A DNA stretch of 64,000 bases from Dehalococcoidia bacterium (GTDB lineage Bacteria > Chloroflexota > Dehalococcoidia > Lucifugimonadales > Lucifugimonadaceae): assembly GCA_965262065.1 (NCBI GenBank), contig OZ253497.1, positions 493,637 through 557,636 of the forward strand, in the 5' to 3' direction. The position numbers and the translations under genes were made by a program. Below are positions 1 through 45,611 of this stretch, piece after piece (position 1 is the first letter of the stretch; every line of letters starts with the position of its first letter). The notes beneath the pieces were generated by a model. The model did not search any database and was not told the origin of the DNA. It saw only the letters and a list, made by a program, of their open reading frames with translations.

Positions 1-200
1 TCCCACCGTTACACCCGGACAGATCACAACATTCCGCAATTACTTAGTCCATCCGGACGAGAAAACACGCTTTAAGTATGAGACACTCCAGGCGAAACTC
101 GGAATGCTTCGCATGGAACCCGAACACCTGCTCCACCAACAACAACAACCCGGCTTGCCAGTTTTCACCTCTTGGGTCAGGGAACTCCAGAGAATCGCAT

Positions 201-10453: not shown

Positions 10454-10652
10454 TGAATACGCCCTCTATGCACTCGACTGCCGGTGTGATTCGTTCATAT
10501 TCTGCCGGTCCATCCCCTGAATTTCCGAAAGACGGAAGCACTCAGGCAAGGCATTTGACCATCAGCCGCGGCCGCGCAGATTCTACCCCGTCGGGGGCCT
10601 GCGGGCCATACATCGCCCTGAGAATCGCGCCCGCGTACGGGCGCCGTCGAAT

Positions 10653-20730: not shown

Positions 20731-20868
20731 ATGACATCTTGGGACCGAGGGCCATACGGGCGGGGTCAAGAAAAAGATGACATCTTGGGACCGAGGGCCA
20801 TACGGGCGGGGTCAAGAAAAAGATGACATCTTGGGACTCAGGGCCACACGGGCGGGGTCAAGAAAAAA
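20731..20868. repeat. 3 x 46-nt perfect/near-perfect tandem repeat
   Basis: The unit atgacatcttgggaccgagggccatacgggcggggtcaagaaaaag occurs at 20731, 20777 and 20823. The third copy has 3 substitutions. Confidence 0.9.
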
Positions 20869-28848: not shown

Positions 28849-28911
28849 ACGGATTTTTGCAAGACCGCGATGTGGGGCGGATTTGAATCCCGCCCCACAT
28901 CGCGACAGTTC

Positions 28912-30054
28912 TTACTGGTCTATGACCGATCCGTCGGCGTGCAGCCTCGTATTGATCTCGCGGGGCGTGAAGGGAACCTTCTCTCGCGCGTCGGGCTTTA
29001 GCTCGACACCGATTCCCGGCTCGTCGGAGATAATCAGGTAGCCGTTGCCATCGTGCACCGGCGTGCCGGTGACCATGTCGCTCTTCGGCGGCACGTCCTC
29101 GCCCGTCGGGTACTCCTGCAGTGAGAAGTTCGGCACGGAGGCGGCAATCTGCAAGCAGGCCGCAGTGCTGACCGGACTGAGCGGGTTGTGCGGCACGACG
29201 CCCACGTGTCTGGCCTCTGCGGCTGCGGCGATCTTCTTCGTTGCAGAGATGCCGCCCACGATGCACACGTCAGGCCGGACGTACTGGACCGCGTTCCTGC
29301 TGAGCGCCATCTCGAAGTCCCAGAGCGAGGTGAACCGCTCACCGGTGGCTATGGGGATGTTTATCTTGTCGGCCACGTACGCCATCTCATCGATGTTGTC
29401 CGGCGTCACGGGGTCTTCGTAGAAATAGGGGTGGAACTTCTCGATGCCCAGGCCGAGCTGGACCGCTTCGGTGGGCGTGAGCCTCCGGTGTATCTCGATG
29501 CACAGATCGACGTCGCGGCCTACCGCCGCACGGTAGTCGGCCACTGTGTCGATGGCGTCTTCGATCTTCGCCACGTGGGTCTTGAAGTACGGCAGGTCGT
29601 GCGATTCGTCCAGGAACGGCGTCAGGTGCCCCACGGCAGTGAAACCCAATTCCTTTGCGGCCTTGACGCCGTTGACGAGCTTCTCGCGGGTGTTTCCGAA
29701 CACGTGGTAGTAGACACGCGCCTTGTCCCTGACCTTGCCGCCGAGCAATTGATGCACGGGGACGTCGAAGTGCTTGCCGGCTATATCCCAGAGCGCGATG
29801 TCGATCGCGCTGATAGCGCCCATAATGGCCGAGCCGCGGAAGTGGGATGAGCGGTACATGAACTGCCAGTGGTGCTCGATCCGGAGAGGGTCCTTCCCCA
29901 TGAGGTAGCGGCCGTATTTTTCGATTGCGACGGCAGACGATTCGAGGTAGCCCCACGCGCCCGACTCACCCAGGCCGGTAATGCCTGCGTCCGTCTCGAT
30001 CTCTACCAGCAGGTACCTGTCCAGAAAGATCGGTTCAACTTTAGTTATCTTCAA
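28912..30054 (-). CDS. enolase-superfamily dehydratase, D-galactonate dehydratase (DgoD)-like, paralogue 2
   Basis: TTG start with AGGAGAG upstream. Motifs: 'MKITKVEP..LLVEIETDAGITGLGES', 'ALWDIAGK', 'IEIHRRL', 'FYEDP', 'IATGERF', 'YVRPD'. Confidence 0.88.
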   Translation of the reverse strand: MKITKVEPIFLDRYLLVEIETDAGITGLGESGAWGYLESSAVAIEKYGRYLMGKDPLRIEHHWQFMYRSSHFRGSAIMGAISAIDIALWDIAGKHFDVPVHQLLGGKVRDKARVYYHVFGNTREKLVNGVKAAKELGFTAVGHLTPFLDESHDLPYFKTHVAKIEDAIDTVADYRAAVGRDVDLCIEIHRRLTPTEAVQLGLGIEKFHPYFYEDPVTPDNIDEMAYVADKINIPIATGERFTSLWDFEMALSRNAVQYVRPDVCIVGGISATKKIAAAAEARHVGVVPHNPLSPVSTAACLQIAASVPNFSLQEYPTGEDVPPKSDMVTGTPVHDGNGYLIISDEPGIGVELKPDAREKVPFTPREINTRLHADGSVIDQ

Positions 30055-31704: not shown

Positions 31705-31977
31705 ACTCGAACCCGCCTTGCGGGCCGTCGAAGTCCCGCGCCGGTCTTGTGGGGGAAACAGGGAGCAACACGTTGGTTGACCGACGCAGTCCTGAAAGAT
31801 CGAACTGCGTCGGCGATTCTCTTTGCTCCGCAGACCCGGCGTGGAATACTACTACCCCGCGGAGCGCCCGCCTCGCCAATTGCCGAGATATTCGGGCCCG
31901 GGACCAACTATCGACTAGAGGACGGCCGAACGCGTAGAGTCGGCCACGCATATCGCCGCGAATTCGGAGGAAAAAAG

Positions 31978-33108
31978 ATGAACGGACCAGACATATACGA
32001 CCGGCTCGGCGTCACAAAGGTGATCAACGCCCGCAGCTGGGTAACCGCCCTCGGCGGATCGATCATGCGGCCGGAAGTATTTGCGGCCATGGAAGAGGCG
32101 GGGCGGCACTTCGTCGACATGGACGAGTTGATGGCTGCCGGCGGCAAGGTCGTGGCGCGGGCGTGCGGCGCTGAGGCGGGCATGGTCTGCGCCGGAGCGG
32201 CGGCCGGAAACCTGCTCATGGCGGCCGCCGCCATCACCGGGACCGACAGGTCCAAGGTCGACCGCCTCCCCGATACGACCGGCATGAAGAACGAAATCGT
32301 CATCTTCAAGTCGCAACGAAATTCATACGACCGGACGTTCGAGACCGCGGGCGGCAAGCTCGTGGAGATAGGCATGCCGAAGACGGTGACGGCATACCAG
32401 CTTGAAGCCGCCATCGGAGACGCGACGGCAGGAGTGGTCTACACGCTTGCGCCGTTCCTTCCGCGCCCGCTCTCCCTCGAAGAGACCATAGAGATCGCCC
32501 ACGCATGTGGCGCGCCCGTCCTGGTCGACGCCTCGGCGGAGGTGCCGCCGGCCGACAATCTGACAAAACCGATGAGAGCCGGCGCCGACATGGTGACCTA
32601 CTCAGGCGGCAAGGGCATCTGCGGCCCGCAAAACTCCGGTCTGCTGGCCGGCCGGGCAGATTTGATTGAAGCGGCGTTCATGAACTACCTGCCCGCAGGC
32701 GCGCCGCGCGCCGGCATCGCGCGCCCGGCGAAGGTGTCCAAGGAGACCATCGTCGGCCTGGTCACGGCGATCGAGCTGTTCCTCGACTCCGATCACGAGT
32801 CGGTGTGGGCAGGCTGGCGGCAGAAGTGCGAGCACGTCGTCGAAAAGGTCAGAGGAATCCCCGGCCTGCGGGTGGTGATAGAGGACAACGAGAACCGGCA
32901 GGGGCCGCAGCCGGTGATTTACCTCGAACCCGAGTGGAGCGGTCCGCCCGCGGACGAAATACGCAGGCGTCTCGCCGAGGGCAACCCACCGATAATGATC
33001 GGCTCAGGCGGTTACGGGGACGAGCTGAACGTGGTGATGGTCAACGTGCGGCCTGGCGAAGAGAAGATCATCGCCGATCGCCTGCACGCAATCCTCACCT
33101 CCGAGTGA
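31978..33108 (+). CDS. SelA-fold PLP-dependent enzyme (DgaE-like), copy 1
   Basis: ATG 31978 preceded by GGAGG. Motifs: 'VINARSWVTALGGSIMRPEV' and PLP-Lys context 'YSGGKGICGPQNSGLLAG'. At 376 aa it lacks the N-terminal extension of true SelA. Confidence 0.75.
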   Translation: MNGPDIYDRLGVTKVINARSWVTALGGSIMRPEVFAAMEEAGRHFVDMDELMAAGGKVVARACGAEAGMVCAGAAAGNLLMAAAAITGTDRSKVDRLPDTTGMKNEIVIFKSQRNSYDRTFETAGGKLVEIGMPKTVTAYQLEAAIGDATAGVVYTLAPFLPRPLSLEETIEIAHACGAPVLVDASAEVPPADNLTKPMRAGADMVTYSGGKGICGPQNSGLLAGRADLIEAAFMNYLPAGAPRAGIARPAKVSKETIVGLVTAIELFLDSDHESVWAGWRQKCEHVVEKVRGIPGLRVVIEDNENRQGPQPVIYLEPEWSGPPADEIRRRLAEGNPPIMIGSGGYGDELNVVMVNVRPGEEKIIADRLHAILTSE

Positions 33109-33124
33109 CCGGGACGCGATCGCG

Positions 33125-34270
33125 ATGCCGATGCCGCTCCGAACCCCCGAACCGTACGCCAGGCTGGGCGTAAAGCCGGTCATCAACGCCCAAAGCTGGG
33201 TGACGGCGCTCGGCGGCAGCCTCATGCGGCCCGAAGTATTGAGCGCCATGAACGAGGCGGCGGCGTGCTTCGTCGACATGGTCGAACTCAACCGGGCGGC
33301 GGGCAAGGTAGTGGCGCGGGCATGCGGGGCCGAATCGGGCATGGTCACCGCGGGAGCGTCGGCGGCCGGGACCATCGCCGTCGCGGCCTGTATGACCGGC
33401 GTCGATCGAGCAAGGGCGGAGCACCTGCCCGACCCGACGGGAATGAAGAACGAGGTGGTCGTCTTCTGGGGAGAGCGCAACCGCTACGACATGTCGTTCG
33501 AGTTGCCGGGGGCGCGGATCGTCGAATGGGGCGTGCCGGGCGCCGGGGCGGCCTACCAGCTCGACGCTGCGATCACCGAACGCACCTGCGCCGTCGCGGC
33601 CGTATTCCAGCCGCTGTTGAAACGCGGCCTGCCGGTGAGCGAAATGTGCGAGGTCGCCCACGCCCGCAACGTGCCGGTGATCGTGGACGCCGCCGCCGAG
33701 GTCCCGCCGCTGGCCAACCTCACGCGCTTTATTCAGGATGGCGCCGACCTGGCGTTCTTTTCCGGCGGCAAGGGCATCGGGGGGCCGCAGAACGCCGGCC
33801 TGCTAGCCGGCAGCAGCGACCTGATGGAGGCTGCGTACGTCAACGCGCTCAACCTTGACGCGCCGCGGGCTGGAGTGGCTCGGGGGATGAAGGCGTCCAA
33901 GGAGTCGATCGTGGGAATGGTCACGGCGCTCGAACTCCTGGTCGAAACGGGGGAGGACGCCCTGTACGGAGGATGGATGGCCAAGGCGCGGCATATTCAC
34001 GGCCGCCTGGAGCACGTCGAAGGGCTGCGAGTCGTCATCGAAGAGACGGGGCCCGACCGTCACGGGCCGCAGCCGGTGGTCTACTTCGAACCTGGGTGGC
34101 GCGGGCCCTCGCCAGCCGAGATCCGCCAACGCCTGCTCGACGGCGACCCGCCAATACACGTCGGCATGGGCCACTACGCCGATGAGATCAACCTCGTCAT
34201 GGTGTGCCTCCAAGACGGCGAAGAAGAGATCGTCGCCGAGCGGTTGTTGGAGATTCTCGACACGGCCTAA
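33125..34270 (+). CDS. SelA-fold PLP-dependent enzyme (DgaE-like), copy 2
   Basis: 'VINAQSWVTALGGSLMRPEV', 'FSGGKGIGGPQNAGLLAG'. It is a clear paralogue of the upstream gene. Confidence 0.75.
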   Translation: MPMPLRTPEPYARLGVKPVINAQSWVTALGGSLMRPEVLSAMNEAAACFVDMVELNRAAGKVVARACGAESGMVTAGASAAGTIAVAACMTGVDRARAEHLPDPTGMKNEVVVFWGERNRYDMSFELPGARIVEWGVPGAGAAYQLDAAITERTCAVAAVFQPLLKRGLPVSEMCEVAHARNVPVIVDAAAEVPPLANLTRFIQDGADLAFFSGGKGIGGPQNAGLLAGSSDLMEAAYVNALNLDAPRAGVARGMKASKESIVGMVTALELLVETGEDALYGGWMAKARHIHGRLEHVEGLRVVIEETGPDRHGPQPVVYFEPGWRGPSPAEIRQRLLDGDPPIHVGMGHYADEINLVMVCLQDGEEEIVAERLLEILDTA

Positions 34271-34299
34271 GCTCGGGTTCGTGCGGTCGACCCGCTGCC

Positions 34300-34380
34300 C
34301 TAATCTCCCCGCGGGGGTAAGACGCCGGCCTTGTGGAAATCCCGTTCGTCTTCGACTGTCCTGAGGGACCGGGGCGCGTG
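34300..34380 (-). pseudogene. orphan copy of the 3' end of the enolase gene at 35869..37050 (direct-repeat copy A)
   Basis: 70/81 nt are identical by hand alignment to 35869-35949. It encodes HAPRSLRTVEDERDFHKAGVLPPRGD* versus HAPRPLRTVEDERNFHKAGVSPPRGD* at the true gene end. Confidence 0.75.
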
Positions 34381-34547
34381 AAACTGCCACAAGGTCGCTT
34401 GTACATGTGCCATACGGCGCAGGCGCTGAATAAAGCTCGGGCACCGTCCAGCATCGGGTACTTTATATTGAGTTCGGCGACTATCCTTCGCGGGTGGCCC
34501 GAAAGAGGACGCAGGGCAACGCGCGAACATCAAGACCCCTCTAAATC

Positions 34548-35570
34548 ATGGCGCTCGAAATACATCAGTTGGAACCAGAGCAAATTGACCAGGCAGGAAG
34601 AGTCCTGGTGCACGAGACGGATATCGACAAATGGTCGCAATCCGCCCGCGTGATCAATACGTGGCGTGCCTCTCACGCCGGTCCGCTGAATACATTTAGG
34701 ATGAATCTTCGCAGGCGAGTCCGAGGTCGCGACTTCGTCGCGCAGCGCCTCAAGCGTTTGCCCTCGATCGTTTCGAAAGTGGAAAGACTACCGCGGATCC
34801 GTTTGTCGCAAATGCAAGACATTGGCGGTTGCCGTGCCGTGTTACGCACATCGGACCATGCATATGACCTGGCCCTGGATTTCGCATCCAGCAGGATCCG
34901 GCACAAGCTGATTCGGTACAAGGACTATATTGAGAATCCGAGGCGATCAGGTTACCGCAGTCTGCACATGGTGTATGCCTACGACAGTGATCGATCCATG
35001 CAATGGAATGGCCTAAACATCGAAATTCAAATCCGTTCCCTTCTCCAACACCAATGGGCGACAGCCGTCGAAACTGTCGGCACGTTTACGCGGAACGACC
35101 TCAAGTCAAACCACGGCAATGCGATCTGGCTACGCTTCTTCGCGCTTATGAGTACTGTGATCGCACAGACTGAAGGAATGCCCGGCATCCCCAACACTCC
35201 AACAAGCCGAAGCAAACTCCTGCGCGAGATCAGGGAATGCGACCAACTACTTGGAATCTCTGAACAATTGGCTGCGTTTCAAGACCTTACGCCCATGCTC
35301 CCGGGTCTTTCGACGAGAAACAAGTGGATCGGTCTGGAACTGGACCTGGCGAACCAAACGGTGATTGGGTCCGTCTTTAATCCAGGGGACCTGGAGGCTG
35401 CAACCAACTGGTATGTGGAGAGGGAAGTTGAGAGCCGGGGGGATTCGCAAGTAGAGGTAGTTTTGGTCTCAACTGCATCGTTGTCAGCGCTCAGAAGGGC
35501 CTATCCGAACTACCTCGCGGACTTGGGCGATTTCAGGCGCCTGGTTCAGGAGACGATTGCGATTCCATGA
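34548..35570 (+). CDS. RelA/SpoT-domain protein (small alarmone synthetase / toxSAS-like nucleotide pyrophosphokinase) with ~140-aa C-terminal domain
   Basis: 'RLKRLPSIVSKVER', 'MQDIGGCRAVL', 'ENPRRSGYRSLHMVYAY', 'IEIQIRSLLQHQWATAVE'. This is the synthetase-domain motif set. There is no HD hydrolase domain. Confidence 0.8.
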   Translation: MALEIHQLEPEQIDQAGRVLVHETDIDKWSQSARVINTWRASHAGPLNTFRMNLRRRVRGRDFVAQRLKRLPSIVSKVERLPRIRLSQMQDIGGCRAVLRTSDHAYDLALDFASSRIRHKLIRYKDYIENPRRSGYRSLHMVYAYDSDRSMQWNGLNIEIQIRSLLQHQWATAVETVGTFTRNDLKSNHGNAIWLRFFALMSTVIAQTEGMPGIPNTPTSRSKLLREIRECDQLLGISEQLAAFQDLTPMLPGLSTRNKWIGLELDLANQTVIGSVFNPGDLEAATNWYVEREVESRGDSQVEVVLVSTASLSALRRAYPNYLADLGDFRRLVQETIAIP

Positions 35571-35703
35571 CGGCCATTTCGCGGAACCGCTTCTCCCGTC
35601 TCACGATGGCTCTGCGATCGCGGGCAAGGACTCTTTGCATAACCCGTTCGAATCTCTGGGCCGGCGTTTCGACCGGTCGAGCGTTCTTCCTCTTGCCAGC
35701 CAT
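35533..35703 (-). CDS. possible 56-aa basic helical protein, convergent with and overlapping the RelA/SpoT gene end
   Basis: Hand translation (below the track cut-off): MAGKRKNARPVETPAQRFERVMQRVLARDRRAIVRREKRFREMAVMESQSSPEPGA*. ATG at 35701-35703, TGA at 35533-35535. No clear RBS was seen. Confidence 0.25.
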   Translation of the reverse strand: MAGKRKNARPVETPAQRFERVMQRVLARDRRAIVRREKRFREMAVMESQSSPEPGA

Positions 35704-35868
35704 AATTTATGTCCCCTGAGCCGACACGGCCCACTGTAATCGAATCACTACACACTGGACAATTGTCGCATATGCCTCAGGTGGTCAAGCAAGAGTAGAA
35801 AGGCAGCCGCCAGCCCGATAGACGCGGCATGAATGTCGCAATGGAACTTGATCCGGCTACTCGCGGCC

Positions 35869-37050
35869 CTAGTCCCCGCGCGGGGGTGAGACGCCTGCTT
35901 TGTGGAAGTTTCGTTCGTCTTCGACGGTCCTGAGGGGCCGGGGCGCGTGTCGGTCGTATGTGTACTCTTTCAGAGCCGCCTCGTTGATTTCGATGCCGAT
36001 CCCCGGCTCGGTGGGCAACTCGACGTAGCCCTGGTCCGGCACGAGCGGCTTCACCATCAGCTTGTTGCACACGTCCTGCAGGCCGTGGGGGTACTCGTAC
36101 ATCAGGAAGTTCGGTATGACGGCGGACGCCTGCACGCCGGCCGCGAACGAGATCGCCGCGCTATTGGCGCCGTGGGGCGAAATGCCCATGTCGTACGCCT
36201 CGGCCATGGCGGCGATCTGCACGATCTCCAGTATCCCGCCCGTGTTCGAGATGTCTGGGTTGAGGTAGTCGGCCGCACGGCGCTCGAATACCTCGACGAA
36301 GCCGCGCCGCCCGTAGATCGCCTCGCCGATCGTTACCGGAATGTTGAGGGCGTTCTTGACCTCGGCGATGCCCCGGATGTTCTCCGGCGGACACGGCTCC
36401 TCGAACCAGTAGGGCCGGTACTTCTCGATCATGCGGCCGACCATGATCGCCTCGATGGGCGATAGACGCCGGTGGACCTCGATGAGTATCTCGACGCGCG
36501 GTCCGACCGCCTCTCGCACCGCTCCGACCTTGGCGGCCGCCAGTTCAAGGTCGGCGTGATCCACGAACGAACGCCACGGCCCGGGGAACGGGTCGAACTT
36601 CAGGGCGTCGTACCCCAGTTTCACTGACTTCAGCGCGCTGTTTGCGCACTCCTCCGGCGTGTCGCCCGCCGCTCCGCCGCCGTAGACCCTGAGCGCCGGG
36701 CGAACGGCGCCTCCCAGCAGGTTGTAGACCGGCTGGTCGAGGGCCTTGCCGGTGATGTCCCACATGGCGATCTCCAACCCGCTCACTGCGCTGTAGACGT
36801 CCATGGAGCCGCGCTTGAGAAACATGTCCTCGTAGGCCCAGTGACGGAAGTGGCCGATCTGCATCGGATCGCGGCCGATGAGGTAACGCTTCATCTCGTC
36901 GATATGCGCCGTGATCGCCGTGTCACGGTCGAGTTGCGTGTACGCCTCGCCCCAGCCGACGATTCCGTTGTCGGTGGTTATCTTGACGAACACCCAGTTC
37001 TTGGTCTGTGGCGGATGCACTATGAAGGTTTCGATGTCCTGGATTTTCAC
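35869..37050 (-). CDS. enolase-superfamily dehydratase, paralogue 3
   Basis: GTG 37048-37050 is preceded by AGGAG (7-nt spacer) and gives 'VKIQDIETFIVHPP'. Motifs: 'AMWDITGK', 'IEVHRRL', 'WFEEP', 'VTIGEAI', 'YLNPD'. The track ORF extends to 37224; ATG 37122 is an alternative start. Confidence 0.88.
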   Translation of the reverse strand: MKIQDIETFIVHPPQTKNWVFVKITTDNGIVGWGEAYTQLDRDTAITAHIDEMKRYLIGRDPMQIGHFRHWAYEDMFLKRGSMDVYSAVSGLEIAMWDITGKALDQPVYNLLGGAVRPALRVYGGGAAGDTPEECANSALKSVKLGYDALKFDPFPGPWRSFVDHADLELAAAKVGAVREAVGPRVEILIEVHRRLSPIEAIMVGRMIEKYRPYWFEEPCPPENIRGIAEVKNALNIPVTIGEAIYGRRGFVEVFERRAADYLNPDISNTGGILEIVQIAAMAEAYDMGISPHGANSAAISFAAGVQASAVIPNFLMYEYPHGLQDVCNKLMVKPLVPDQGYVELPTEPGIGIEINEAALKEYTYDRHAPRPLRTVEDERNFHKAGVSPPRGD

Positions 37051-37239
37051 TTCGCCGCTCCTCTTGTCTGCGAGGTCATGATGGCCCGGCCACTTAGTCG
37101 GGCCGTGAGTTGCTGGGAACATGTTACGGCCGACCCGCCCGGCGTAGAGCATGGCCGGGGGTAATCGCGCGATACTGTCCGTTTGAATGTGCACGCAGCG
37201 CGGCATGACAGCCGGACGCCGCAAAATCAGGGATAGGCA

Positions 37240-38190
37240 ATGATCTACCGGACCCTTGGCCGAACCGGCCAGAAAGTATCGCTCCTAAGCTACGGCACGG
37301 GCGGGCCGAGCGGGTTTGGCGCGCGCACCGGCGTCGACCGTTCGGGCCGTCGCCGCCTGATCCGCCGGGCGCTGGATATCGGCGTGAATCTCATCGACAC
37401 CGCAGAGGGTTACGGGAACTCCGAGGAATGGCTGGGCGATGCCTTACAGGGCACGACCCGCGATTCGTACCTCATCGCCACCAAGTGGAGTCCTCCGTGC
37501 ACGTTTCGCGTTAACGACGAAAAAAAGTTCACAGGGCTGGCCGATTCGTTCGAACGCAGTCTCAAGCGGTTGCGCACCGGCTATATCGACATCATGCAGT
37601 TCCACGGGGTGACCATGGCTACGTACAGCGCCGTCGTGGACCGCTATTACCCGATTCTGAAGGCGCTGCAGGAACAGGGAAAGCTCCGGTTTATCGGCGC
37701 GACGTTCCAGTTGAAGGCCGAGCCGCGGCACGAGACCGCAGTCCTCGCCCTGCGCAACGATCCCGGGCTCTGGGACACGATCATGCTCAAGTACGGCTTC
37801 CTGAACCAATGGGCGGCCAAAGAGGTGTTCCCGCTGGCCATCGAACACGGAGTGGGCATACTCAACATGGCGGCCGTGCGGCTGTCGCTGTCCCGTCCGC
37901 AACGCTCACGCGAGGTCGTCGCACGGTGGAAGGAAGAGGGCTTGATCGCGCCCGACGATTTGCCGGACGATGGACCTTTCGACTGGCTATTGGGCGAGGA
38001 CGTGGACTCGGTCATCTCCGCCGGCTACAAGTTCGGCGCGGACCACGCGGCTGTTTCGACAGTGATCACGGGCACATCGAGCATCGAGCATCTCGAGGCC
38101 AACGCAAGATCGCTCGAAAAACCCGCGCTGCCGAGCCATAACCACGAGCGTCTTGTCCGGCTGTTCGAGGATTCCGCCGAGCCGGATTGA
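37240..38190 (+). CDS. aldo/keto reductase
   Basis: 'MIYRTLGRTGQKVSLLSYGTG', 'IDTAEGYGNSEEWLG', 'IDIMQFH'. Confidence 0.88.
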   Translation: MIYRTLGRTGQKVSLLSYGTGGPSGFGARTGVDRSGRRRLIRRALDIGVNLIDTAEGYGNSEEWLGDALQGTTRDSYLIATKWSPPCTFRVNDEKKFTGLADSFERSLKRLRTGYIDIMQFHGVTMATYSAVVDRYYPILKALQEQGKLRFIGATFQLKAEPRHETAVLALRNDPGLWDTIMLKYGFLNQWAAKEVFPLAIEHGVGILNMAAVRLSLSRPQRSREVVARWKEEGLIAPDDLPDDGPFDWLLGEDVDSVISAGYKFGADHAAVSTVITGTSSIEHLEANARSLEKPALPSHNHERLVRLFEDSAEPD

Positions 38191-38800
38191 TCCGCGTGTC
38201 GCCCATGTTTCGCCGACAACCGGGTATTAGGGCAATCCTGCCTATAGAAGAACCCGACGGCGGGTTTGAAGAGCCTGTTTCAAAAGTCTCCTCTCAAGAA
38301 TTAGGCCGCACATGGCGAGACGATTTACGACATCAACCCTCCCATCACTACGTAATACGGCCCCAAATCCCGTCATTCCCGTGAAAACGGGAATCTAGAG
38401 GTGGGGGGTCTCCGTAGGATTCGAGTTAGTGAAACACCCTCTTGAAACCCGCCGCTACGACTCGAAAAGACGAGGCCACCGATACGAAATTGCGCTTGTC
38501 GTTGCTCACTATGCTAGGTGGGGCATTGGAGCCGTGAAACTGACATTGGACCTGGGCAATCGCCCTGTGCCTGACTGATCATAGTGCACAGGCATTCGGT
38601 TATCGTGACCCATGAGGAAGCGGGCGAGCTTAGACTTCCGCTGCGAACATTAGGAAGATGACGGCTTAGGCTTGTTTTCGAAAGAGTGTAAAACTGATAA
38701 TAAGATTCTGAGCAATTCTCACTTGCGCTAATAAGTAACGGTATGGCATCTGCGTCTGAGCCAAAACGCCGGCCTCATGGCCGTCATTAGGTTGAGCATC
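38191..38800. mobile_element. ~610-bp AT-rich non-coding insert between the AKR gene and its displaced 3' fragment
   Basis: There are no ORFs of 60 aa or more. A hand count of 38641-38740 gave about 39 % G+C. It contains an inverted-repeat element and a GTCAYYC-type hairpin. Confidence 0.4.
38258..38454. repeat. inverted-repeat element with central perfect hairpin
   Basis: The arms cggcgggtttgaagagcctgtttca (38258-38282) and tgaaacaccctcttgaaacccgccg (38430-38454) are complementary at 21/25 positions. An internal hairpin attcccgt-gaaa-acgggaat lies at 38375-38394. Confidence 0.6.
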
Positions 38801-38887
38801 TGGACTCGGTCATCTCCGCCGTTTCAAGTTCGGCGCGGACCACCCGGCGATTGCCACGGTGATCAAAACAGACGAGACGATCAACTA
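38801..38887 (+). pseudogene. frameshifted fragment duplicating part of the AKR gene 3' region
   Basis: 38801-38866 aligns to 38003-38069 (tggactcggtcatctccgcc.. and ttcggcgcggaccac identical) with a 1-nt deletion. It reads ..KFGADHPAIATVIKTDETIN* versus ..KFGADHAAVSTVITGTSS.. in the intact gene. Confidence 0.65.
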
Positions 38888-38910
38888 GGTATGGCGAGTG
38901 TCGTCCACCG

Positions 38911-39777
38911 CTAGGCTATGTGGCTCATGGCCTGGTCTACGATGTCCATGCCGGCACGCTCCGACCAGGCCGCCAGGATCTGTTTCGTAATCGGCCCGGG
39001 CGGGTCGTTCCGCAGCGGGCTGTCGTTGATCTTGCCGACCGGCAGCGCGCAGTAGCTCGTGGTCGTCAGAAACGCATCGTACGGCGTGAGGGGCTCTTCG
39101 GCGGTCGGAATATCGAGGTCGTCGGCCAGTTCGAGCACGGTCATGCGACTGACACCCGCAAGCACGTTGCGCGCCGGGGCGGTGCGGACCACTCCATTGG
39201 TGACCACGAAGAAGTTGCCGCCAGTGTTCTCGGAGAGGTTCCCGTCGACATCGAGGAGCACGGCGTAGGCCTCCGGGTCGACCAGCTTCGCCTCGATTTC
39301 GGCCATCACCAGGTTCATGCGGCTAATCGTCTTGAGCCTGGCGTCGAGGGCCTGTACAGGGTCTCTGCGAGTGGTCGGAATTACAACGTGCGCGCCCTCG
39401 TCGTAGAATCTGGCGTACGAAGTGAAAGGTATCGGCCTCATCCTGATCACAACCGTCGCCTGTTCCGGCTCCAGCACCGAATAGACCGCGCCGCGCTAGA
39501 TCATCTGCGTTACGGAATAGTCGCCGTTCGGCGCCCGCATCCGGTCGTTGCGGCGGGCCAGCTCTTCCGTGACTTCCTGCATCTCGTCGATCGACATGCC
39601 GGGATCGATGCGGACCATGTGAAGGGTCCTGTACAGCCGCTCCAGGTGTTCCCTCAGGCGGAATACCTTGCCACCGAACGTGCGCTCCGTGTCCATGCCT
39701 GCAACGCGATAGCAACGGAAAACTGCGGTACTCGTGGGTAGTTGACCTGAATTCGGCCGAAACCGGATAGGCAACAA
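38911..39777 (-). pseudogene. class IV (fold type IV) aminotransferase pseudogene, paralogue of 42069..42980
   Basis: Track ORFs 38911..39477 and 39496..39777 are colinear with the intact copy but are split by an in-frame TAG ('TQMI*' versus 'TQMISRGSG'). The fragment lacks the first ~38 codons and the 'YNADE' block ('PYDAFLTTT' versus 'PYDAYNADEAFLTTT'). Confidence 0.85.
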
Positions 39778-39792
39778 GTAGGGGGTTAGGTG

Positions 39793-41400
39793 CTAACTCG
39801 GCGTGTATGTGTCCGGGGGAGTTAGATCATGAAATATGGAATACTGCGAAATAAGGACGTCTTCTCCGCTGACGGTGCCCCACACCAAGAGTGTGTAGAC
39901 CCCCTTGCCGTGCTCGCCCAGCACGTCCCATAAGTCGGCAGCGATAGAGAATTCTGTGCCCCTGGCCGTCCACTCCAGCGCGGTGTTCCACGGGACCTCG
40001 ATTGTCCGCGGCTCCAGCCCCAGGTGCTCAGATTGAACCCACTCCCAAAGCAGGCGGGCCTCGTCGTATGAGGAAGGGTGTTCAGCGTCCGCGGGAACGT
40101 CGTAGGGATTGAGGGATGGGGTGTACGTATAGGTAAATTGGTGGTCTTTGTAAAATTGATTCGCCGTGCGGATCGGCGGTCTCAGCGCAACCACCAAAAG
40201 CCCATTGTCGTAGGAGTAGGCTCTCGCGACCTGTCCCGCGGTAAGCCTGTGCGGCGGCGGATCGAAAGTGAGCAGCACACCGAGGTCGAGTTCGTCGACA
40301 AAAACCGCGCCGTTCTTCGTCGACCCAGACATACTAAGAACACCTCTGTTAATGACCGGTAGTTGAGCGTATTCAACGTAGTCGCCCTCGAAGTGCTGGA
40401 CAACTTGGAGGGAGTAGTCGTCCCATGCAAGTCCGATGTTGACCCGCTTGCGCCACGGATCCAGGATGTTGTCCCGGTGGCCCGGGCTTCCCATCAACCT
40501 CTCCATCGCCAGACTTATTTCCGGCTCGACGCTACCAATTACACGAAATCCTTCCGAAGCTTTGACGCAATAGGGAAGGCCGCTTAGGTTCTCCCCATTG
40601 GACTGAAAGCCCCCGGCAAGGCTGTATCTCATGTAGGGTTTCAGGCCGTCCATGCCCCAATGAGACCCGAAGCAATTCTCCACCTCCGCCTCAGCGTGCA
40701 GTTGAGCGGCTACGTTGTCGCCGAGAACAACGGGGTCCAGACCAACTTTCACACGCTCGTCATTGATGAGTTCGAGCATGTATAGCTTTTCCTCGATGTG
40801 ACGTAGTGGGGGTGGGGGAGCGGGCGAAGGCGTTGATACCACCGATGGCAACAGGGGGGCGAGCGTTGGAGGAGGCGTCGATACAGGAGCAAGCGTGGGC
40901 AAAGGGGCCAGTGTCGGCGGAGGCGTCGGCACAGGAGCAAGCGTGGGCAGAGGCGCCAGTGTCGGAGGAGGCGTCGGCAAAGGAACAAGCGTGGGCAGAG
41001 GCACAAGTGTCGGCGGCGGCGTCGATACAGCAGTCGGCACGGGCAGGGGGGCGAGAGTTGGGGGAGGCGTCGGCACAGCAGTCGGCGCGGGCAGGGGCGC
41101 CAGTGTCGGACGAGGGGTTGGCAGGGCAGCCAGCGTGGGCAGGGGCGCCAGTGTCGGAGGAGGCGTCGGCAGGGCAGCCAGCGTGGGCAGGGGCGCCAGT
41201 GTCGGAGGAGGCGTCGGCAGAGCAGCCAGCGTGGGCAAGGGCGCCAGCGTCGGCGGCTCAGCTTCCCGCGATGACTCTTCTACACGCAACAGGTCAGATA
41301 TGCGTCGAGGTAGCACGTCCTCAACATAGGCATAGTAAGCCACGCTCACCAGGACACCGACGACAAAGCCGAGTACCAACCTCTTTGTGGCCCGACTCAT
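39793..41400 (-). CDS. membrane-anchored secreted protein: Pro-rich repeat stalk + CAP/SCP (PR-1-like) domain + unassigned C-terminal domain
   Basis: N-terminal TM 'LVLGFVVGVLVSVAYYAYV', about 9 x 16-aa 'PPTLAPLPTLAALPTP' repeats, then 'LELINDERVKVGLDPVVLGDNVAAQLHAEA..CFGSHWG..GENLSG', typical of CAP/YkwD-like domains. Confidence 0.75.
   Translation of the reverse strand: MSRATKRLVLGFVVGVLVSVAYYAYVEDVLPRRISDLLRVEESSREAEPPTLAPLPTLAALPTPPPTLAPLPTLAALPTPPPTLAPLPTLAALPTPRPTLAPLPAPTAVPTPPPTLAPLPVPTAVSTPPPTLVPLPTLVPLPTPPPTLAPLPTLAPVPTPPPTLAPLPTLAPVSTPPPTLAPLLPSVVSTPSPAPPPPLRHIEEKLYMLELINDERVKVGLDPVVLGDNVAAQLHAEAEVENCFGSHWGMDGLKPYMRYSLAGGFQSNGENLSGLPYCVKASEGFRVIGSVEPEISLAMERLMGSPGHRDNILDPWRKRVNIGLAWDDYSLQVVQHFEGDYVEYAQLPVINRGVLSMSGSTKNGAVFVDELDLGVLLTFDPPPHRLTAGQVARAYSYDNGLLVVALRPPIRTANQFYKDHQFTYTYTPSLNPYDVPADAEHPSSYDEARLLWEWVQSEHLGLEPRTIEVPWNTALEWTARGTEFSIAADLWDVLGEHGKGVYTLLVWGTVSGEDVLISQYSIFHDLTPPDTYTPS
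40825..41256 (-). repeat. 48-nt periodic coding tandem repeat (16-aa PPTLAPLPTLAALPTP x ~9)
   Basis: Residues 49-192 of the CAP-domain protein. The first three units are identical at protein level and later units diverge progressively. Confidence 0.9.
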
Positions 41401-41606
41401 TCAATCCACCTCACCTCGTCCATTATATCGCGGGCTTCCAAGTAAACGCAGAATCCCTAGAAATCCACGGGCTGCGGTCAAGGCCCGCCCCCACTGACAA
41501 GTTGGAGATAGTCAGTGGGACGGCGGACGGGCAGTCTACACGCCCCCGGAATTAAACACTTTAGGTAGGAGTCTCACAATTCGTAGAACCGGGCAGCGCG
41601 GGGATT

Positions 41607-41951
41607 CTACCAGACCTTCCACCAGGACCGCGGCGACTGCGGCGGAAATGAGCCCTGCCGAAACGCGTCGATCAATGCTCCCTCGCGGTCTTGAGCCAGT
41701 CGCAATTGTTCTCGCAGCACGTCGGTCAGCCCTTCGAGTGCGCGGATGCGCTCGCGGGCCGCGGCGATCTCCCCGTCAGCCACCGGCGCGGCGAGTCCGG
41801 GGTTGTCCAGGATTTCGAGCTTCCCGCGTCCGCCATTTGTCGAACTGCCCGTCCGCAACTCACCGGTTCGGATGCGCCGGTCAACAGTCCTAAGTGAGAC
41901 ACCAAGCCACCGCGCAGCGTCGACCTTGGTCAAGGAAATCGTACTCGCCAT
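41607..41951 (-). CDS. excisionase/MerR-like helix-turn-helix DNA-binding protein with coiled-coil tail
   Basis: 'LTKVDAARWLGVSLRTVDRRIRTGEL' is typical of excisionase-family HTH domains; 114 aa. Confidence 0.6.
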   Translation of the reverse strand: MASTISLTKVDAARWLGVSLRTVDRRIRTGELRTGSSTNGGRGKLEILDNPGLAAPVADGEIAAARERIRALEGLTDVLREQLRLAQDREGALIDAFRQGSFPPQSPRSWWKVW

Positions 41952-42068
41952 GTGCCCCCTTGCGCCTAACGAGATAGCCGGGAATGTTTGTAGTCCAAAA
42001 CCGGCCTGATCAGATGGAAGTCGAGAGAGGCGAGGCGATAAACGCGAAATGACGTTTATCGTAGATCG

Positions 42069-42980
42069 CTAACTCACGTGGCTCATCGCCTGGTCTACGA
42101 TGTCCATGCCGGCACGCTCCGACCAAGCCGCCAAAATCTGCTTCGTTACCGGTCCGGGTGTGTCGGCCCGCAACGGGTTGCCATTGATCTTGCACACCGG
42201 CAACGCGCAGTAGCTCGTGGTCGTCAGAAACGCCTCGTCGGCGTTGTAGGCGTCATACGGTGTGAGGGTCTCCTCCGCCGTCGGAATATCGAGGTCCCGC
42301 GCCAGTTCCAGCACGGTTTGGCGGCTGATTCCGGCCAGAACGTTTCGCGCCGGGGCCGTCCGAATCACGCCGTCGGTCACCACGAAAAAGTTACCGCCGG
42401 TGTTCTCGGACAGGTTTCCATCGACATCCAGAAGCACAGCGTAGGCGGCCGGGTCGATCTGCTTCGCCTCGATCTCGGCCATCACCAGATTCATACGGCT
42501 TATCGTCTTCAGCCTGGCGTCAAGGGCCTGCGGAGGGTCTCTGCGCGTAGTTGGGAAGACGACGTGCGCGCCCGTGTCGTACAACTTGGCGTACGAAGCG
42601 AAAACGATCGGCGTCATCTTGACCACCACGGTCGCCCGCTCCGGCTCCAGCAAAGATGTCCCCGACCCGCGCGAGATCATCTGCGTTACCCAATAGTCGT
42701 CGTTCGGTTGGCGCATCCGGTCGTTGCGGCGCGCCAACTCCTCGGTGATCGACTGCAGTTCCTCTATCGATATGCCCGGATCGATGCGCACCATGTGAAG
42801 GGCCTTGTACAGCCGCTCCAGGTGTTCCCTCAACCGGAACACCTTGCCCGCGAATGTCCGCTCTGTGTCGAAAACCGCATCGCCGACCGAAAGGGCGCGG
42901 TCCAACACCGATATCTTCGCCTGAGAGGTCGGCACGAACTCGCCGTTCACGTATTGGATCAACTCTTGCATTGGAATCAC
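42069..42980 (-). CDS. class IV aminotransferase (branched-chain/D-amino-acid aminotransferase family), intact copy
   Basis: 303 aa. Motifs: 'ERTFAGKVFRLREHLERL', 'LKTISRMNLVMAE', 'ADEAFLTTT'. Confidence 0.85.
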   Translation of the reverse strand: MIPMQELIQYVNGEFVPTSQAKISVLDRALSVGDAVFDTERTFAGKVFRLREHLERLYKALHMVRIDPGISIEELQSITEELARRNDRMRQPNDDYWVTQMISRGSGTSLLEPERATVVVKMTPIVFASYAKLYDTGAHVVFPTTRRDPPQALDARLKTISRMNLVMAEIEAKQIDPAAYAVLLDVDGNLSENTGGNFFVVTDGVIRTAPARNVLAGISRQTVLELARDLDIPTAEETLTPYDAYNADEAFLTTTSYCALPVCKINGNPLRADTPGPVTKQILAAWSERAGMDIVDQAMSHVS

Positions 42981-43051
42981 CCCGCTGTACTAGTGCGTAC
43001 GGATTAAGCGGATTTTAGGCCATTCGGCAGCCCGGGGCGCAAGGCCGGCAA

Positions 43052-44239
43052 CTATTCCGTCGCATTCTTTAGCGCCCCCGCCAAATCGCCACGCGGCTCT
43101 ACTGCCGTGTGCCGCAGACCGAGCCACTCCGCCATCGACGCCAGTTCCCGCGCCAGCGCCGCCGATACGTCGCCGGCGTCGCGGCCTTCCTCAAGGTACG
43201 CGGCCTGAACCAGCAAGACGCCTGCGGAACGGTCTGCCTTCAGATCGACCCGCGCGACTAGTTCGCCGGCGTGAAGAAACGGGTAGACATAGTAGCCGTA
43301 CCGTCTCTTGGGCTTCGGAACATATATTTCGATGCGATACAAGAAGTCGAAGAGTCGTTCCGTCCGATCCCGAAACCAGACCAGGGAGTCGAACGGGCTT
43401 ACGATCGCCGTCGCGCCGGACCGACGCGGCAGCCGGGCGTCCTTGTGCATGTAAGCGGGCTGAGGCCAACCTTCAACGCTTGCCTCGTTCAGCACTCCCT
43501 CTTCGACCAGCTCCTGCACTCGGGGCCGCGCTTCAGGAACCTTGATCCGGTAGTAGTCCGCCAGGTCGGCGAGCGTCCCAATCCCGAGGGCCTCGGCGCC
43601 GAGCTTGAGCATCTCGCGTTGCGCGTCTGGACGAGACAGCGGAGACATTTTTAGAAACTTGGGCGGAATCACCCTTTCGGCCAGATCGTAGACGCGGGTG
43701 AAGTTCCCGCGCCTAGTCGCGGCCAGCGAGCCGTTGTGAAACAACCACTCCAGCGCTATCTTGCCCTTGCTCAGGCCCCACCACGGGCCGTTTCGTTCTC
43801 CCGCCTCGTGCAGGTCGGAAACTGTCAAAGGGCCGCGGGCGGCAACCTGTTCCCGCACCGACTCGATATAGCCTCGCTGCTCCTCTATGAGGCCCTCCAA
43901 CCGTGGCCATGGGCGCGCCGATTCCATGCGATGCCGAAGCAGCGAATAGTGGTCCATCGGCATGAGCGATGCCATGTGGCCCCAGCCCTCGAAGAGCCTC
44001 GATTTGCGGTAGGCGAAGTCGTCCAGCTGCTCACGGGGATAGGGTCCGAGCCGCGAAAACGCCGGCATGTAGTGCGTACGCACAGCCACGTTCACCGAGT
44101 CGAGTTGCAGCAGCTTTACGTGCCGGAACAGCCGGTCGTAGTGCCGGACGTCGACCCGCCCAGACGGCCGCTTCCCTGTGAATCCCTGGGCAGCGAGGGC
44201 GATGCGGCGGGCTTCGGCTCGGCTAAGCGTGACTTTCAT
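43052..44239 (-). CDS. winged-helix DNA-binding protein, YcaQ/AlkZ-like (DUF1006) putative crosslink-repair glycosylase
   Basis: 'LSRAEARRIALAAQGF', 'LLQLDSVNVAVRTHYMPAFSRLGPY'. ATG at 44237-44239 lies within track ORF 43052..44293. Confidence 0.65.
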   Translation of the reverse strand: MKVTLSRAEARRIALAAQGFTGKRPSGRVDVRHYDRLFRHVKLLQLDSVNVAVRTHYMPAFSRLGPYPREQLDDFAYRKSRLFEGWGHMASLMPMDHYSLLRHRMESARPWPRLEGLIEEQRGYIESVREQVAARGPLTVSDLHEAGERNGPWWGLSKGKIALEWLFHNGSLAATRRGNFTRVYDLAERVIPPKFLKMSPLSRPDAQREMLKLGAEALGIGTLADLADYYRIKVPEARPRVQELVEEGVLNEASVEGWPQPAYMHKDARLPRRSGATAIVSPFDSLVWFRDRTERLFDFLYRIEIYVPKPKRRYGYYVYPFLHAGELVARVDLKADRSAGVLLVQAAYLEEGRDAGDVSAALARELASMAEWLGLRHTAVEPRGDLAGALKNATE

Positions 44240-44318
44240 AGTCGGACGATTGATGAAGTACGACTCGGCTGACCGGACTGCTAAGGCGGGCAACTACGCA
44301 ACTTCATGCTCAAGGGGA

Positions 44319-45611
44319 TCACGGTCTTACAATGCTGCCATCGGCTCGCCGGACCTCGTTCCACGCTCCCCCGAACCCCCATTCGCTATGCGGAAACTTC
44401 GCAGCAAGTTCCTCGTCGATGTCGATGCCCAGGCCGGGCTTGCCGTTTGACCACATGTGGCCGTCCCTGACTTCGGGGCATCCCGGGAAGACCTCTTTCG
44501 TGCGTTCGCCGAAGATGGCGTATTCCTGCACACCGAAGTTCCAGCTATTCAGGTCCATCATCAGGTTTGCGGCGTGGCCGACTGGAGACGTGTCCCCCGG
44601 CCCGTGCCACGCCGTTCGCACCCCGAACATCTCCCCCATCGCAGCCAACTTGCGGCATGGCGTGATCCCGCCCATCTGCGAAACGTGGATCCGTATGAAG
44701 TCGATCAGCCGGTCCTTGACCATGGGAACCACCTCGTGCGGGTTGTTCCAAAGTTCGCCCATCGCCAGAGGTGTGGCGCACAGGCGACGGACCATCCGGA
44801 AGTAGTCCTGGTCCTCCGGCGAAAACAGGTCTTCGAGGAAAAACAGGCGGTACTGCTCGACCTCTTTGGCGAACCAAACGCCGTCGATCGCCGGGATGCG
44901 CTCGTGGACATCGTGCAGCATCTCGAAGTCCCAGCCGCACTGTGAACGAACGAGTTCGAACAGCCGCAGGGCGCTATTCATGTATGGCTTCGGCTCGAAT
45001 ATGCCGGGTGGGTGCGCGTACCGCTTGTCGGGCGAAAGTTCTTTGTTCCAGGTGGTTACCTGGCGGGGAGCGCCTCCGGCCACACCTGCGGTTTCGGCCT
45101 TTTTCTCCAGGCCCTTTGTGCCGTAAGTCGCGTATCCGGGCGTGTCGACCTGGACGCGGATGTGATGGAATCCCTGGTCCATGAAGGCGCTAACTTTGTC
45201 TGCCACCTCGGCCGGTTCTCGGCCGCTCGCGTGCACATAGACCGCGGCGGCCTCCCTCGCACGGCCTCCCAACAGGTCATACACCGGCATACCGGCCATT
45301 TTGCCCTTGATGTCCCACAGGGCCTGGTCCACCCCGCTCAGCGCGTTGTTGAGGACGCCGCCGTTGCGCCAGTACGAACTGACGTAACTCGATTGCCAGA
45401 TGTCCTCGATGTCCGCCACGTTCCACCCGATCAAAAACGGGCGCAGATAATTCTCCACCGCCACCTTGACCGGCAGCGGTCGCTGCGTGAAGGTGGCGCA
45501 TCCGACCCCGTAGAGGCCCGGCTCGCTTGTCTCCACCTTGACGATGACCAGACGTATGCCGTCCGGCTCGGTCAGGATGACTTTTATGTCTCTGATAGTG
45601 ACGTTGCTCAC
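44319..45611 (-). CDS. enolase-superfamily dehydratase, D-mannonate dehydratase (ManD) subgroup-like, paralogue 4
   Basis: 'IEDIWQSSYVSSYWRNGGVLNNALSGVDQALWDIKGK', 'HDVHERI', 'FLEDLF', 'LAMGELW', 'IRIHVS'. Confidence 0.88.
   Translation of the reverse strand: MSNVTIRDIKVILTEPDGIRLVIVKVETSEPGLYGVGCATFTQRPLPVKVAVENYLRPFLIGWNVADIEDIWQSSYVSSYWRNGGVLNNALSGVDQALWDIKGKMAGMPVYDLLGGRAREAAAVYVHASGREPAEVADKVSAFMDQGFHHIRVQVDTPGYATYGTKGLEKKAETAGVAGGAPRQVTTWNKELSPDKRYAHPPGIFEPKPYMNSALRLFELVRSQCGWDFEMLHDVHERIPAIDGVWFAKEVEQYRLFFLEDLFSPEDQDYFRMVRRLCATPLAMGELWNNPHEVVPMVKDRLIDFIRIHVSQMGGITPCRKLAAMGEMFGVRTAWHGPGDTSPVGHAANLMMDLNSWNFGVQEYAIFGERTKEVFPGCPEVRDGHMWSNGKPGLGIDIDEELAAKFPHSEWGFGGAWNEVRRADGSIVRP

Follow-up and report, generated by a model that had tools for sequence, protein, structure and literature searches.

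The locus described here lies in a 64-kb window (the whole stretch of DNA analyzed, 64,000 nucleotides of contig OZ253497.1, assembly GCA_965262065.1) from a Dehalococcoidia bacterium. Three genes of this window, encoding an enolase-superfamily protein, an aldo/keto reductase (AKR), and a class IV aminotransferase, are each followed by an insert and then by a partial, diverged copy of the same gene, referred to below as a relic (Table 1). An earlier note on this DNA had described these three structures, and self-BLASTN of the full 64 kb recovered all of them as direct repeats matching the pairs described there, confirming that the structures are real and consistently oriented. In 3/3 pairs, the order was complete gene, insert, and fragment, with the intact copy proximal. 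The other long self-matches in the window corresponded to tandem paralogues and to the internal repeats of one gene.

The enolase pair (34290-34380 versus 35859-35949; 91 nt, 85.7% identity, E = 5e-23) comprised the final 81 coding nucleotides, the stop codon, and ~10 further nucleotides of the MR_MLE gene (35869..37224, minus strand), in agreement with the 81-nt displaced end reported previously. The AKR pair (38003-38068 versus 38801-38865; 66 nt, 86.4%, E = 9e-14) was likewise a real repeat, reported earlier as a displaced end of ~67 nt, but it did not represent the very 3′ end of the gene: the matched stretch stopped 122 nt before the stop codon, and the fragment carried a 1-nt deletion. 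The relic of the aminotransferase pair (38870-39693 versus 42028-42869; 842 nt, 79.6%, E = 0) was indeed a dead and diverged copy lacking 37 codons; its defect, however, consisted of an in-frame stop codon (S103) and an 18-nt deletion, with no frameshift. The AKR and aminotransferase relics were adjacent, as had been noted, the former ending at 38865 and the tail of the latter starting at 38870.

Table 1. Features of the cassette-bearing part of the window (positions in the window; +, forward strand; -, reverse strand).
Feature	Position	Strand	Supporting observations
SelA/class-V-aminotransferase-like gene	33125..34270	+	Pfam Aminotran_5/SelA; conserved, bounds cassette site 1 on the left; converges with the enolase gene; collinear in relatives
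Enolase-family 3′-end relic	34290..34380	-	19 nt from the SelA-like stop; 85.7% over 91 nt to 35859-35949
CapRel-like RelA_SpoT protein, cargo of insert 1	34548..35570	+	Pfam, PADLOC, PHROGs, and PDB matches; candidate fused toxin-antitoxin-type defense gene
56-aa open reading frame between the enolase and CapRel-like genes	35533..35703	-	Conserved alignment with L001, L003, L004, and L005
Intact enolase-superfamily gene	35869..37224	-	Pfam MR_MLE_N, MR_MLE_C; repeat copy 35859-35949
Intact AKR gene	37240..38190	+	Pfam Aldo_ket_red 3.4e-33; repeated segment 38003-38068; 94.7% nucleotide identity to L085
Insert 2, an eroded Fic cassette	38191..38800	.	Matches to L085, L090, the L002 Fic start, and the L001/L002 spacers
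AKR relic, 66 nt, internal fragment of the 3′ region	38801..38865	+	1-nt deletion; truncated remnant of the 212-nt relic kept in L085
Aminotransferase relic, allele A (L005-type)	38870..39714	-	Tail 38870-38910; coding part from codon 38 to stop
Insert 3: CAP-domain gene 39793..41400 and HTH_17/excisionase-like gene 41607..41951	39715..42027	-	Absent from 16/16 related loci
Intact class IV aminotransferase, allele B, with 41-nt tail	42028..42980 (CDS 42069..42980)	-	Pfam Aminotran_4
AlkZ-like DNA glycosylase gene	43052..44293	-	Pfam AlkZ-like; conserved right flank; borders are further cassette sites in L005, L090, and L052

The G+C content of the inserts was 0.53-0.58, compared with 0.62-0.69 in the flanks, the exception being the Pro-rich repeat of insert 3. 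In the earlier note, the inserts were called DNA of foreign composition; insert 2 is not simply foreign, being a deleted Fic cassette plus a spacer that also occurs in relatives. The CapRel-like protein of insert 1 matched Pfam RelA_SpoT (6.5e-19), a phage protein family (phrog_4773, 3e-87), the PADLOC defense candidate PDC-S33 over its full length (7.7e-105), and solved RelA/SpoT family structures (PDB 7ztb/9erv, 8e-36), which we take to be CapRel. Its homologues on viral contigs were only 34-42% identical and uninformative for this locus. Insert 2 contained no open reading frame (ORF) of notable size. The larger protein of insert 3 was assigned to the CAP family (PF00188) through its homologues and is secreted; a 48-nt unit repeated 8.4 times in its gene (40852-41253) encodes a Pro-rich linker of the TLAPLPT(L/P) type, and this array is strongly skewed in both GC and AT. 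CAP proteins form a very large family in SAR202 (1,379 matches), and the nearest non-self member was only 65% identical. The second ORF of insert 3 (114 aa) had weak HTH_17 and excisionase similarity in Pfam and PHROGs.

No recombinase was detected when all insert ORFs were searched with Pfam, PHROGs, and PADLOC, which bears out the earlier statement that the inserts encode none; their products were just the RelA_SpoT, CAP-family, and weakly HTH_17/excisionase-like proteins. A non-exhaustive Pfam check of ORFs elsewhere in the window with low G+C at third codon positions (GC3) revealed no integrase or transposase. An Rfam scan of 34000-43200 gave no RNA family, and the promoter and terminator scan remained at or under the shuffle expectation. 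Exact-protein look-ups with the window proteins and a viral-contig scan with the aminotransferase gave no match, and nothing usable came from metagenome scans with the exact 31-mer spanning the junction of insert 3 and the relic or, at the protein level, with the SelA-like gene.

Relatives of the locus were collected in two ways. A scan with the AKR protein, using one genome per species, gave eight syntenic Dehalococcoidia/SAR202 loci, several of them chromosome-scale, and AKR and aminotransferase protein searches followed by context look-ups gave a further eight (L083-L090), for a total of 16; the window, like every relative, comes from a metagenome assembly. The backbone of the window was 94-95% identical to L085-L090, ~92% to L005, and 82-88% to the others, and was visibly mosaic in its identity to them.

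The comparison revealed that the intergenic spots between the conserved genes are hypervariable cassette sites. The site 3′ of the enolase gene held a CapRel-like gene in the window, L005, L003, and L087; PDC-S42 in L007 (E = 1e-106); PDC-S11/DUF4268-like genes in L001, L002, L083, L085, and L089; a GNAT gene in L052; an alcohol dehydrogenase gene in L006; and a McrBC-type restriction system in L090 (11711-14622; McrC-like and AAA_5/McrB_lid genes). The AKR-aminotransferase site was empty (15 nt) in L052 and contained a DUF4143-like ATPase gene in L007, a Fic gene in L002, L085, L087, and L090, a cadherin/fn3/LRR protein gene in L086, L088, and L089, and insert 3 in the window only. In L083 (13108-17293), this site was occupied by a >10-kb element carrying an rve-family transposase, HTH_3 regulators, and the only serine recombinase encountered at these loci, a large one of 544 aa (Resolvase + Recombinase + Zn_ribbon_recom). 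This element differs from the other cassettes and exceeds them in size, so that bona fide mobile elements use the spot too. Further cassette sites were found on either side of the AlkZ-like gene, toward the aminotransferase or toward a second enolase-family gene (L005, L090, L052). The stretch is therefore a genuine hot spot, as the earlier note had claimed: the same intergenic spots hold different cargo in the 16 loci, and 11 of these have duplicates of their own.

Two other kinds of repeat were observed in these relatives. L007 contained two 44-nt direct repeats (100% and 95%) in 9085-9236 and 10509-10635, with their order swapped around the DUF4143-like ATPase gene. An enolase-family gene, the counterpart of window 28912..30054, was tandemly duplicated (85%) in L002 (455-1674 / 1802-3013) and L004 (565-1733 / 1910-3078) and is single in the window.

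Self-comparisons of the related loci showed that the duplication of a chromosomal segment on either side of an insert is not peculiar to the window. At least one gene-end duplicate, in direct orientation, was present in 11/16 related loci, or 12/17 when the window is included. The duplicate of L052, 377 nt long and 96.5% identical (~98-99% apart from a ragged 25-nt end), spans the 5′ end of the AlkZ gene, the intergenic region, and the 3′ end of the second enolase gene, and flanks a 1,065-nt insert with a PDC-M32-like gene pair; the ragged end represents a different AlkZ allele (GKR versus VNR). In L085, 212 nt of the AKR 3′ end (95.8%) together with 28 nt of the aminotransferase 3′ end are repeated around the Fic gene, and the two copies differ in their intergenic allele (20 nt versus 178 nt). 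A 138-nt AKR end surrounds the cadherin-like gene in L086, L088, and L089, and enolase-end duplicates of 76-103 nt were found in L083-L086 and L089. In L090, 130-nt enolase 3′-end repeats flank the McrBC system, and the relic is still joined to an older block containing the 56-aa ORF, which points to sequential displacement. Finally, 5′ ends of the aminotransferase gene were duplicated in L005 (120 nt) and L090 (61 nt), and the relic of L001 is an internal enolase fragment.

The boundaries of these duplicates varied from event to event (approximately -202, -129, and -39 nt from the stop codon for AKR; -81 and -130 for enolase), and a gene end or a whole intergenic region lay inside every duplicate except that of L001. 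Neither visual inspection nor an all-against-all short BLAST of 13 inserts revealed shared ends or motifs at the junctions, so that the comparison of junctions for a shared core motif, which the earlier note had proposed, gave none. The suggestion that insertion is specific to gene 3′ ends is contradicted by the 5′-end duplicates of L005 and L090 and by the two-gene-end duplicates of L052 and L085. A direct-repeat census over 80 distant loci gave output too noisy to read.

The three scars of the window had been presented as repeated acquisitions, but they do not represent three fresh events in this genome: judging from the relatives, the enolase and AKR scars are old, common to other lineages, and eroded in the window. 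A homologue of the enolase relic was present in L083-L086 and L089 and absent from L005, L003, L004, and L087, which are without the ~150-nt piece that holds it. A ~350-nt block adjoining the enolase gene, consisting of the conserved 56-aa ORF and the final ~25 codons of the CapRel-like gene, was kept without the remainder of that gene in L083, L085, L004, and L001. Since the enolase relic of L083 and L085 directly follows this block, both loci are deletion derivatives of the window-type arrangement; the window keeps the complete order of enolase gene, 56-aa ORF, CapRel-like gene, and relic. A 6-nt boundary difference between the relics of the window and of L083/L085 was considered as a sign of independent events and rejected when the alignment revealed deletion derivatives. 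The 56-aa ORF itself (35533-35703, minus strand; MAGKRKNARPVETPAQRFERV...) is basic and retains its start, frame, and stop in L001, L003, L004, and L005; the block that contains it also matches L083 and L085 and persists where the CapRel-like gene is deleted. The ORF had no Pfam match, and it could encode a toxin partner or regulator or represent an independent small gene.

Insert 2 carries similar traces. Its segment 38544-38785 was 92% identical to L085 10864-11105, which contains spacer and the first ~43 nt of Fic, and 91% identical to L090; ~38722-38785 corresponds to the first ~43-60 nt of a Fic gene and resembles the Fic start of L002, and further pieces occur in the L001/L002 spacers. 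Upstream of the Fic start, ~38440-38530 derives from the 3′ end and tail of the aminotransferase gene and shares ~85% identity with the corresponding tails in L087 and L090; this fourth relic of the window is absent from the earlier description. The 66-nt AKR relic matches the start of the 212-nt relic of L085. Together, these matches show insert 2 to be a gutted Fic cassette, from which one deletion took the Fic gene and another the rest of the AKR relic with the spacer. The spacer after the AKR gene also contains 25-nt inverted repeats (38258-38282 / 38430-38454; 88% complementary, 147 nt apart), one arm of which corresponds to the terminator-like hairpin (GGCGGGTTTCAA) in the tail of the aminotransferase gene. 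Related sequence was seen in the spacer of L001 and, in L083, in an intergenic region with no relation to this site (821-1007), which is palindromic in its own right; the feature may be a small repeated palindromic element.

The aminotransferase scar with insert 3 is the sole scar private to the window when compared with the 16 related loci, and its two gene copies have different affinities. The intact copy showed 97-100% nucleotide identity (in 100-nt bins) to L085-L090 and 97.4% protein identity to L052, the relic showed 94-98% nucleotide identity to L005, and the two were only ~80% alike. The copies are thus different population alleles, B and A, joined by recombination between lineages. 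The earlier idea that the relic is the displaced resident copy is not obvious, given that the intact copy carries the allele of the closest relatives. The longest run identical between the copies measured 38 nt (42088-42125, 19 nt before the stop codon). Within this run, the intact copy agrees at two sites with the relic and not with its clade relatives, and just past the stop codon its identity to them falls from 97-100% to at most 71%; this two-site patch and the drop after the stop codon would fit a crossover there.

The explanation that we favor for these observations, with about even confidence, is insertion-duplication through a non-replicating circle and one homologous crossover. In this model, a related strain would release DNA consisting of a cassette (a defense, toxin, or surface-protein gene) and a stretch of its conserved neighborhood, and this DNA would become a non-replicating circle, either through joining of the ends of a trimmed linear piece or, in the donor, through looping-out between an intact gene end and its relic. 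The circle would then enter the chromosome by a single homologous (RecA-type) crossover within the shared stretch, so that this stretch is duplicated with one copy on each side of the cassette; one copy would complete the gene and the other would be left as a truncated relic that decays. Later, homologous exchange among lineages would reshuffle alleles, new cassettes would push older ones distally, and deletions would erode both cassettes and relics. Surviving insertions would look as if they were targeted to gene ends, since only segments containing a gene end or a whole intergenic region keep the flanking genes intact, and a circle carrying one contiguous target segment would account for the duplicates of two gene ends with a cassette between them in L052 and L085. 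The repeats, the ancestry of their alleles, the hypervariable sites, the erosion series, and the lack of a recombinase or junction motif are observed, whereas we infer the circular intermediate, the dependence on RecA, and the route of DNA entry. The Campbell-type single crossover proposed in the earlier note is accordingly supported in its duplication signature, which matches the outcome in 56/60 E. coli clones discussed below, while the circle itself is deduced rather than shown.

Several points weigh against this explanation. The donor of insert 3 is not among the sampled genomes, the next-best CAP homologue being 65% identical. Several duplicates are just 61-140 nt long at 80-92% identity, which would leave little homology for a crossover unless the copies were once more alike. 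The internal relic of L001 would require an extra deletion. At the aminotransferase pair, the only one long enough for this comparison, the reciprocal hybrid copies that the model predicts are not cleanly recognizable: over its whole length, tail included, the relic resembles a single lineage, the intact copy is clade-type save for the two-site patch, and the tail of the relic does not match the clade tail type (65%). Later homologous exchange could have erased or created this allele pattern. In addition, the model leaves unexplained how a cassette is initially joined to a fragment of the target.

A further possibility, to which we assign a rather low probability, is that the relics themselves act in cis as the mobility device by which cassettes are exchanged without a recombinase. 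A circle consisting of the cassette and one repeat would be looped out when an intact end recombines with its relic, and in another cell it would re-integrate at the same core gene through a single crossover. If this were true, arbitrary core-gene ends would be portable attachment sites for defense, toxin, and surface-protein cassettes, and defense islets could be assembled across SAR202 populations without any mobile-element enzyme.

After insertion-duplication, to which we give around half of our belief, the next explanation in rank is homology-facilitated illegitimate recombination (HFIR), which we regard as improbable though ahead of the remaining rivals. Here, linear DNA from a relative would be homologous on one side, and its far end would be joined illegitimately in or just past the resident gene, whose distal part is left as a relic. 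HFIR has been invoked for the analogous arrays of Vibrio type VI secretion system (T6SS) effector and immunity genes (PMC5361080), and it would account for variable relic boundaries and for internal-fragment relics such as that of L001. The window is a recombination mosaic, and the intact aminotransferase and its upstream region are of one allele with no switch at the duplicate boundary, both of which favor HFIR. However, the documented product of HFIR is an insertion with a similar-sized deletion and no duplication (PMC3240628), whereas the products in the window and its relatives are duplications, not deletions, and the two-gene-end duplicates of L052 and L085 would need donors that already bore a relic. 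A specific version of this model, in which allele B and insert 3 were imported by HFIR into an A-type genome, had been read from L005 and L052 only. This ancestry argument no longer carried weight once allele B proved to be the type of the closest relatives of the window (L085-L090), and the version was dropped for this reason, because most of what had seemed an A-like block close to the 3′ end is characteristic of that clade, and because HFIR gives deletions rather than duplications (PMC3240628).

It is less likely still that the inserts are decayed site-specific integrative elements that provided replacement gene ends at their att sites, with the tyrosine or serine recombinase lost or acting in trans. 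The weak excisionase-like HTH protein of insert 3 beside the intact gene end, the L083 element of more than 10 kb at the AKR-aminotransferase site with its large serine recombinase and rve transposase, the att-like size of the 91-nt enolase duplicate, and the frequency of erosion by deletion at this locus would all be compatible with such elements. Conversely, a recombinase was found in none of ~10 cassettes, no conserved core or inverted repeats were present at the junctions, the boundaries varied at one and the same gene (AKR -202, -129, and -39; enolase -81 and -130), and duplicates of 377-842 nt or of two genes far exceed the known att identity segments. The alternative offered in the earlier note, that an unrecognized element family is at work, is unsupported on much the same grounds, namely the missing recombinase, the lack of shared ends or a junction motif, the variable boundaries, and the unrelated cargo.

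Replication or repair errors, either tandem duplication with filler at the joint or a template switch or staggered break producing a very long target-site duplication, have a slightly lower probability again. The copies in L052, the most recent event, are ~98-99% alike save for the ragged 25-nt end, as duplication in situ predicts. That ragged end, however, is the other AlkZ allele (GKR versus VNR), the copies of L085 hold different intergenic alleles (20 versus 178 nt), and the two aminotransferase copies of the window are different population alleles. An assembly artifact, in which a metagenome assembler merged strain variants in tandem, is very improbable. Some assemblies have only 4-15x coverage by their contig names, and the aminotransferase scar is private to this assembly; but the contigs are long-read assemblies of megabase scale, and the relics, with their truncations, stops, and deletions, are not intact alternative alleles. 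Relics also recur in independent assemblies from different samples, that of enolase in L083-L086 and L089, that of AKR in L085, and a 138-nt AKR relic in L086, L088, and L089. The least probable of all, named in the earlier note as a possible refutation, is tandem paralogue duplication with decay of one copy and unrelated insertions in between: the neighborhood is rich in tandem paralogues (a 65% pair; 44319..45611 and the next gene, 78%), but the duplicates begin mid-gene, one spans two genes, and the combination of distinct alleles, each aminotransferase copy being nearer to an outside orthologue (97-100%; 94-98%) than to its partner (80%), with relatives that have a single enolase and AKR gene at these positions in every related locus and a single aminotransferase gene wherever the fetched DNA contains it, excludes in-genome duplication and decay.

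The build-up of small defense and toxin genes at hot spots without mobile-element machinery is still poorly explained. The present locus and its relatives, from an abundant uncultured marine lineage, provide a natural series of fresh (377-nt duplicate, 96.5%), stacked, and eroded stages, which suggests that cassettes are captured through plain homologous recombination with portable homology. Many of the captured cassettes are defense- or toxin-related and would have been taken up together with a piece of neighboring core sequence, leaving gene-end relics. We describe the region as a series of neighboring cassette sites between genes of a SAR202-type chromosome that has, with a probability near the middle of the scale, been scarred by insertion-duplication. 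If confirmed, the arrangement of intact gene, cassette, and diverged gene-end relic would be a searchable signature for finding cassette sites and dating acquisitions in metagenome-assembled genomes.

Some observations concern other parts of the window. The SelA/aminotransferase-like genes at 31747-33108 and 33125-34270 form a tandem paralogue pair (65% nucleotide identity), and an enolase-superfamily pair is formed by 44319-45611 and the next gene (to ~46900; 73-78%); both are paired in relatives too. A 39-nt near-perfect intergenic palindrome at 28866-28904 has a counterpart in L005 (1781-1819). Short direct repeats lie at 20731-20775 / 20823-20867 (45 nt, 93%) and at 2397-2512 / 2631-2746 (116 nt, 71%). 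At the left edge, a low-GC3 ORF (78-1466, plus strand; 0.55) contains an N6_N4 DNA methylase domain and may be another acquired defense or restriction-modification gene.

Integrase-mediated insertion into the 3′ ends of protein genes with provision of a replacement end is known from phage 21 and e14 in icd and from streptococcal integrative and cis-mobilizable elements. These elements share with the present locus the series of intact gene, element, and displaced diverged 3′ end. They differ in having their own or a borrowed site-specific recombinase and a fixed att core; neither was found here, and the boundaries vary. Defense-island hot spots between core genes are known in Pseudomonas and E. 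coli, as are integron cassette arrays. They resemble the present sites in that small defense or toxin genes are interchangeable at fixed spots and differ among close relatives, but they are not described from duplicated ends of core genes, and integrons depend on an integrase with attC sites.

In E. coli, the usual fate of linear DNA homologous on one side was trimming, recircularization, and integration by a single crossover, which gave duplications of 109-950 bp in 56/60 clones; true HFIR, with insertion and deletion, accounted for 4/60 (PMC3240628). As in those clones, a direct duplication of variable size flanks the foreign DNA here (61-842 nt), and genes survive only when the segment contains a gene end. 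The E. coli events were produced in the laboratory with plasmid-derived DNA, whereas those described here are natural and recurrent, lie at cassette hot spots of an uncultured lineage, and involve a presumed circle. HFIR in naturally transformable bacteria was described by de Vries & Wackernagel 2002 and Prudhomme et al. 2002 (as cited in PMC5361080 and PMC3240628). Like the process considered here, it captures unrelated DNA from relatives through a one-sided homologous anchor and requires no mobile-element enzyme; its typical product, as summarized in the citing papers, is an insertion plus a deletion with 3-10 bp microhomology, in contrast to the duplications found here.

The Rhs and T6SS loci and the orphan modules of contact-dependent inhibition (CDI) are also alike in kind; with laboratory insertion-duplication, they make this kind of architecture a known one. 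There, too, incoming DNA separates an intact gene from displaced 3′ fragments, which have the orientation of the gene and vary in length, newcomers are proximal and older fragments are shunted distally (here in L090), and no dedicated recombinase is present. The same two mechanisms are debated, a circular intermediate with a single crossover having been proposed for the displacement of Rhs C-termini (Jackson et al. 2009, PMC2935791) and HFIR for T6SS effector-immunity arrays (Kirchberger et al. 2017, PMC5361080). In those loci, however, the variable 3′ tip is itself the payload (toxin domain and immunity gene), and the core is that of a single toxin family. The anchors of the present locus are metabolic or repair genes unrelated to one another (MR_MLE, Aldo_ket_red, and Aminotran_4 in the window), the replacement ends are allelic to the relic, a gene distinct from the anchor forms the payload, and duplication extends to 5′ ends and to segments of two genes. 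What is new is the use of ordinary genes as anchors and the association with defense cassettes in SAR202, which generalizes the 3′-end displacement of Rhs and T6SS toxin loci to ordinary genes.

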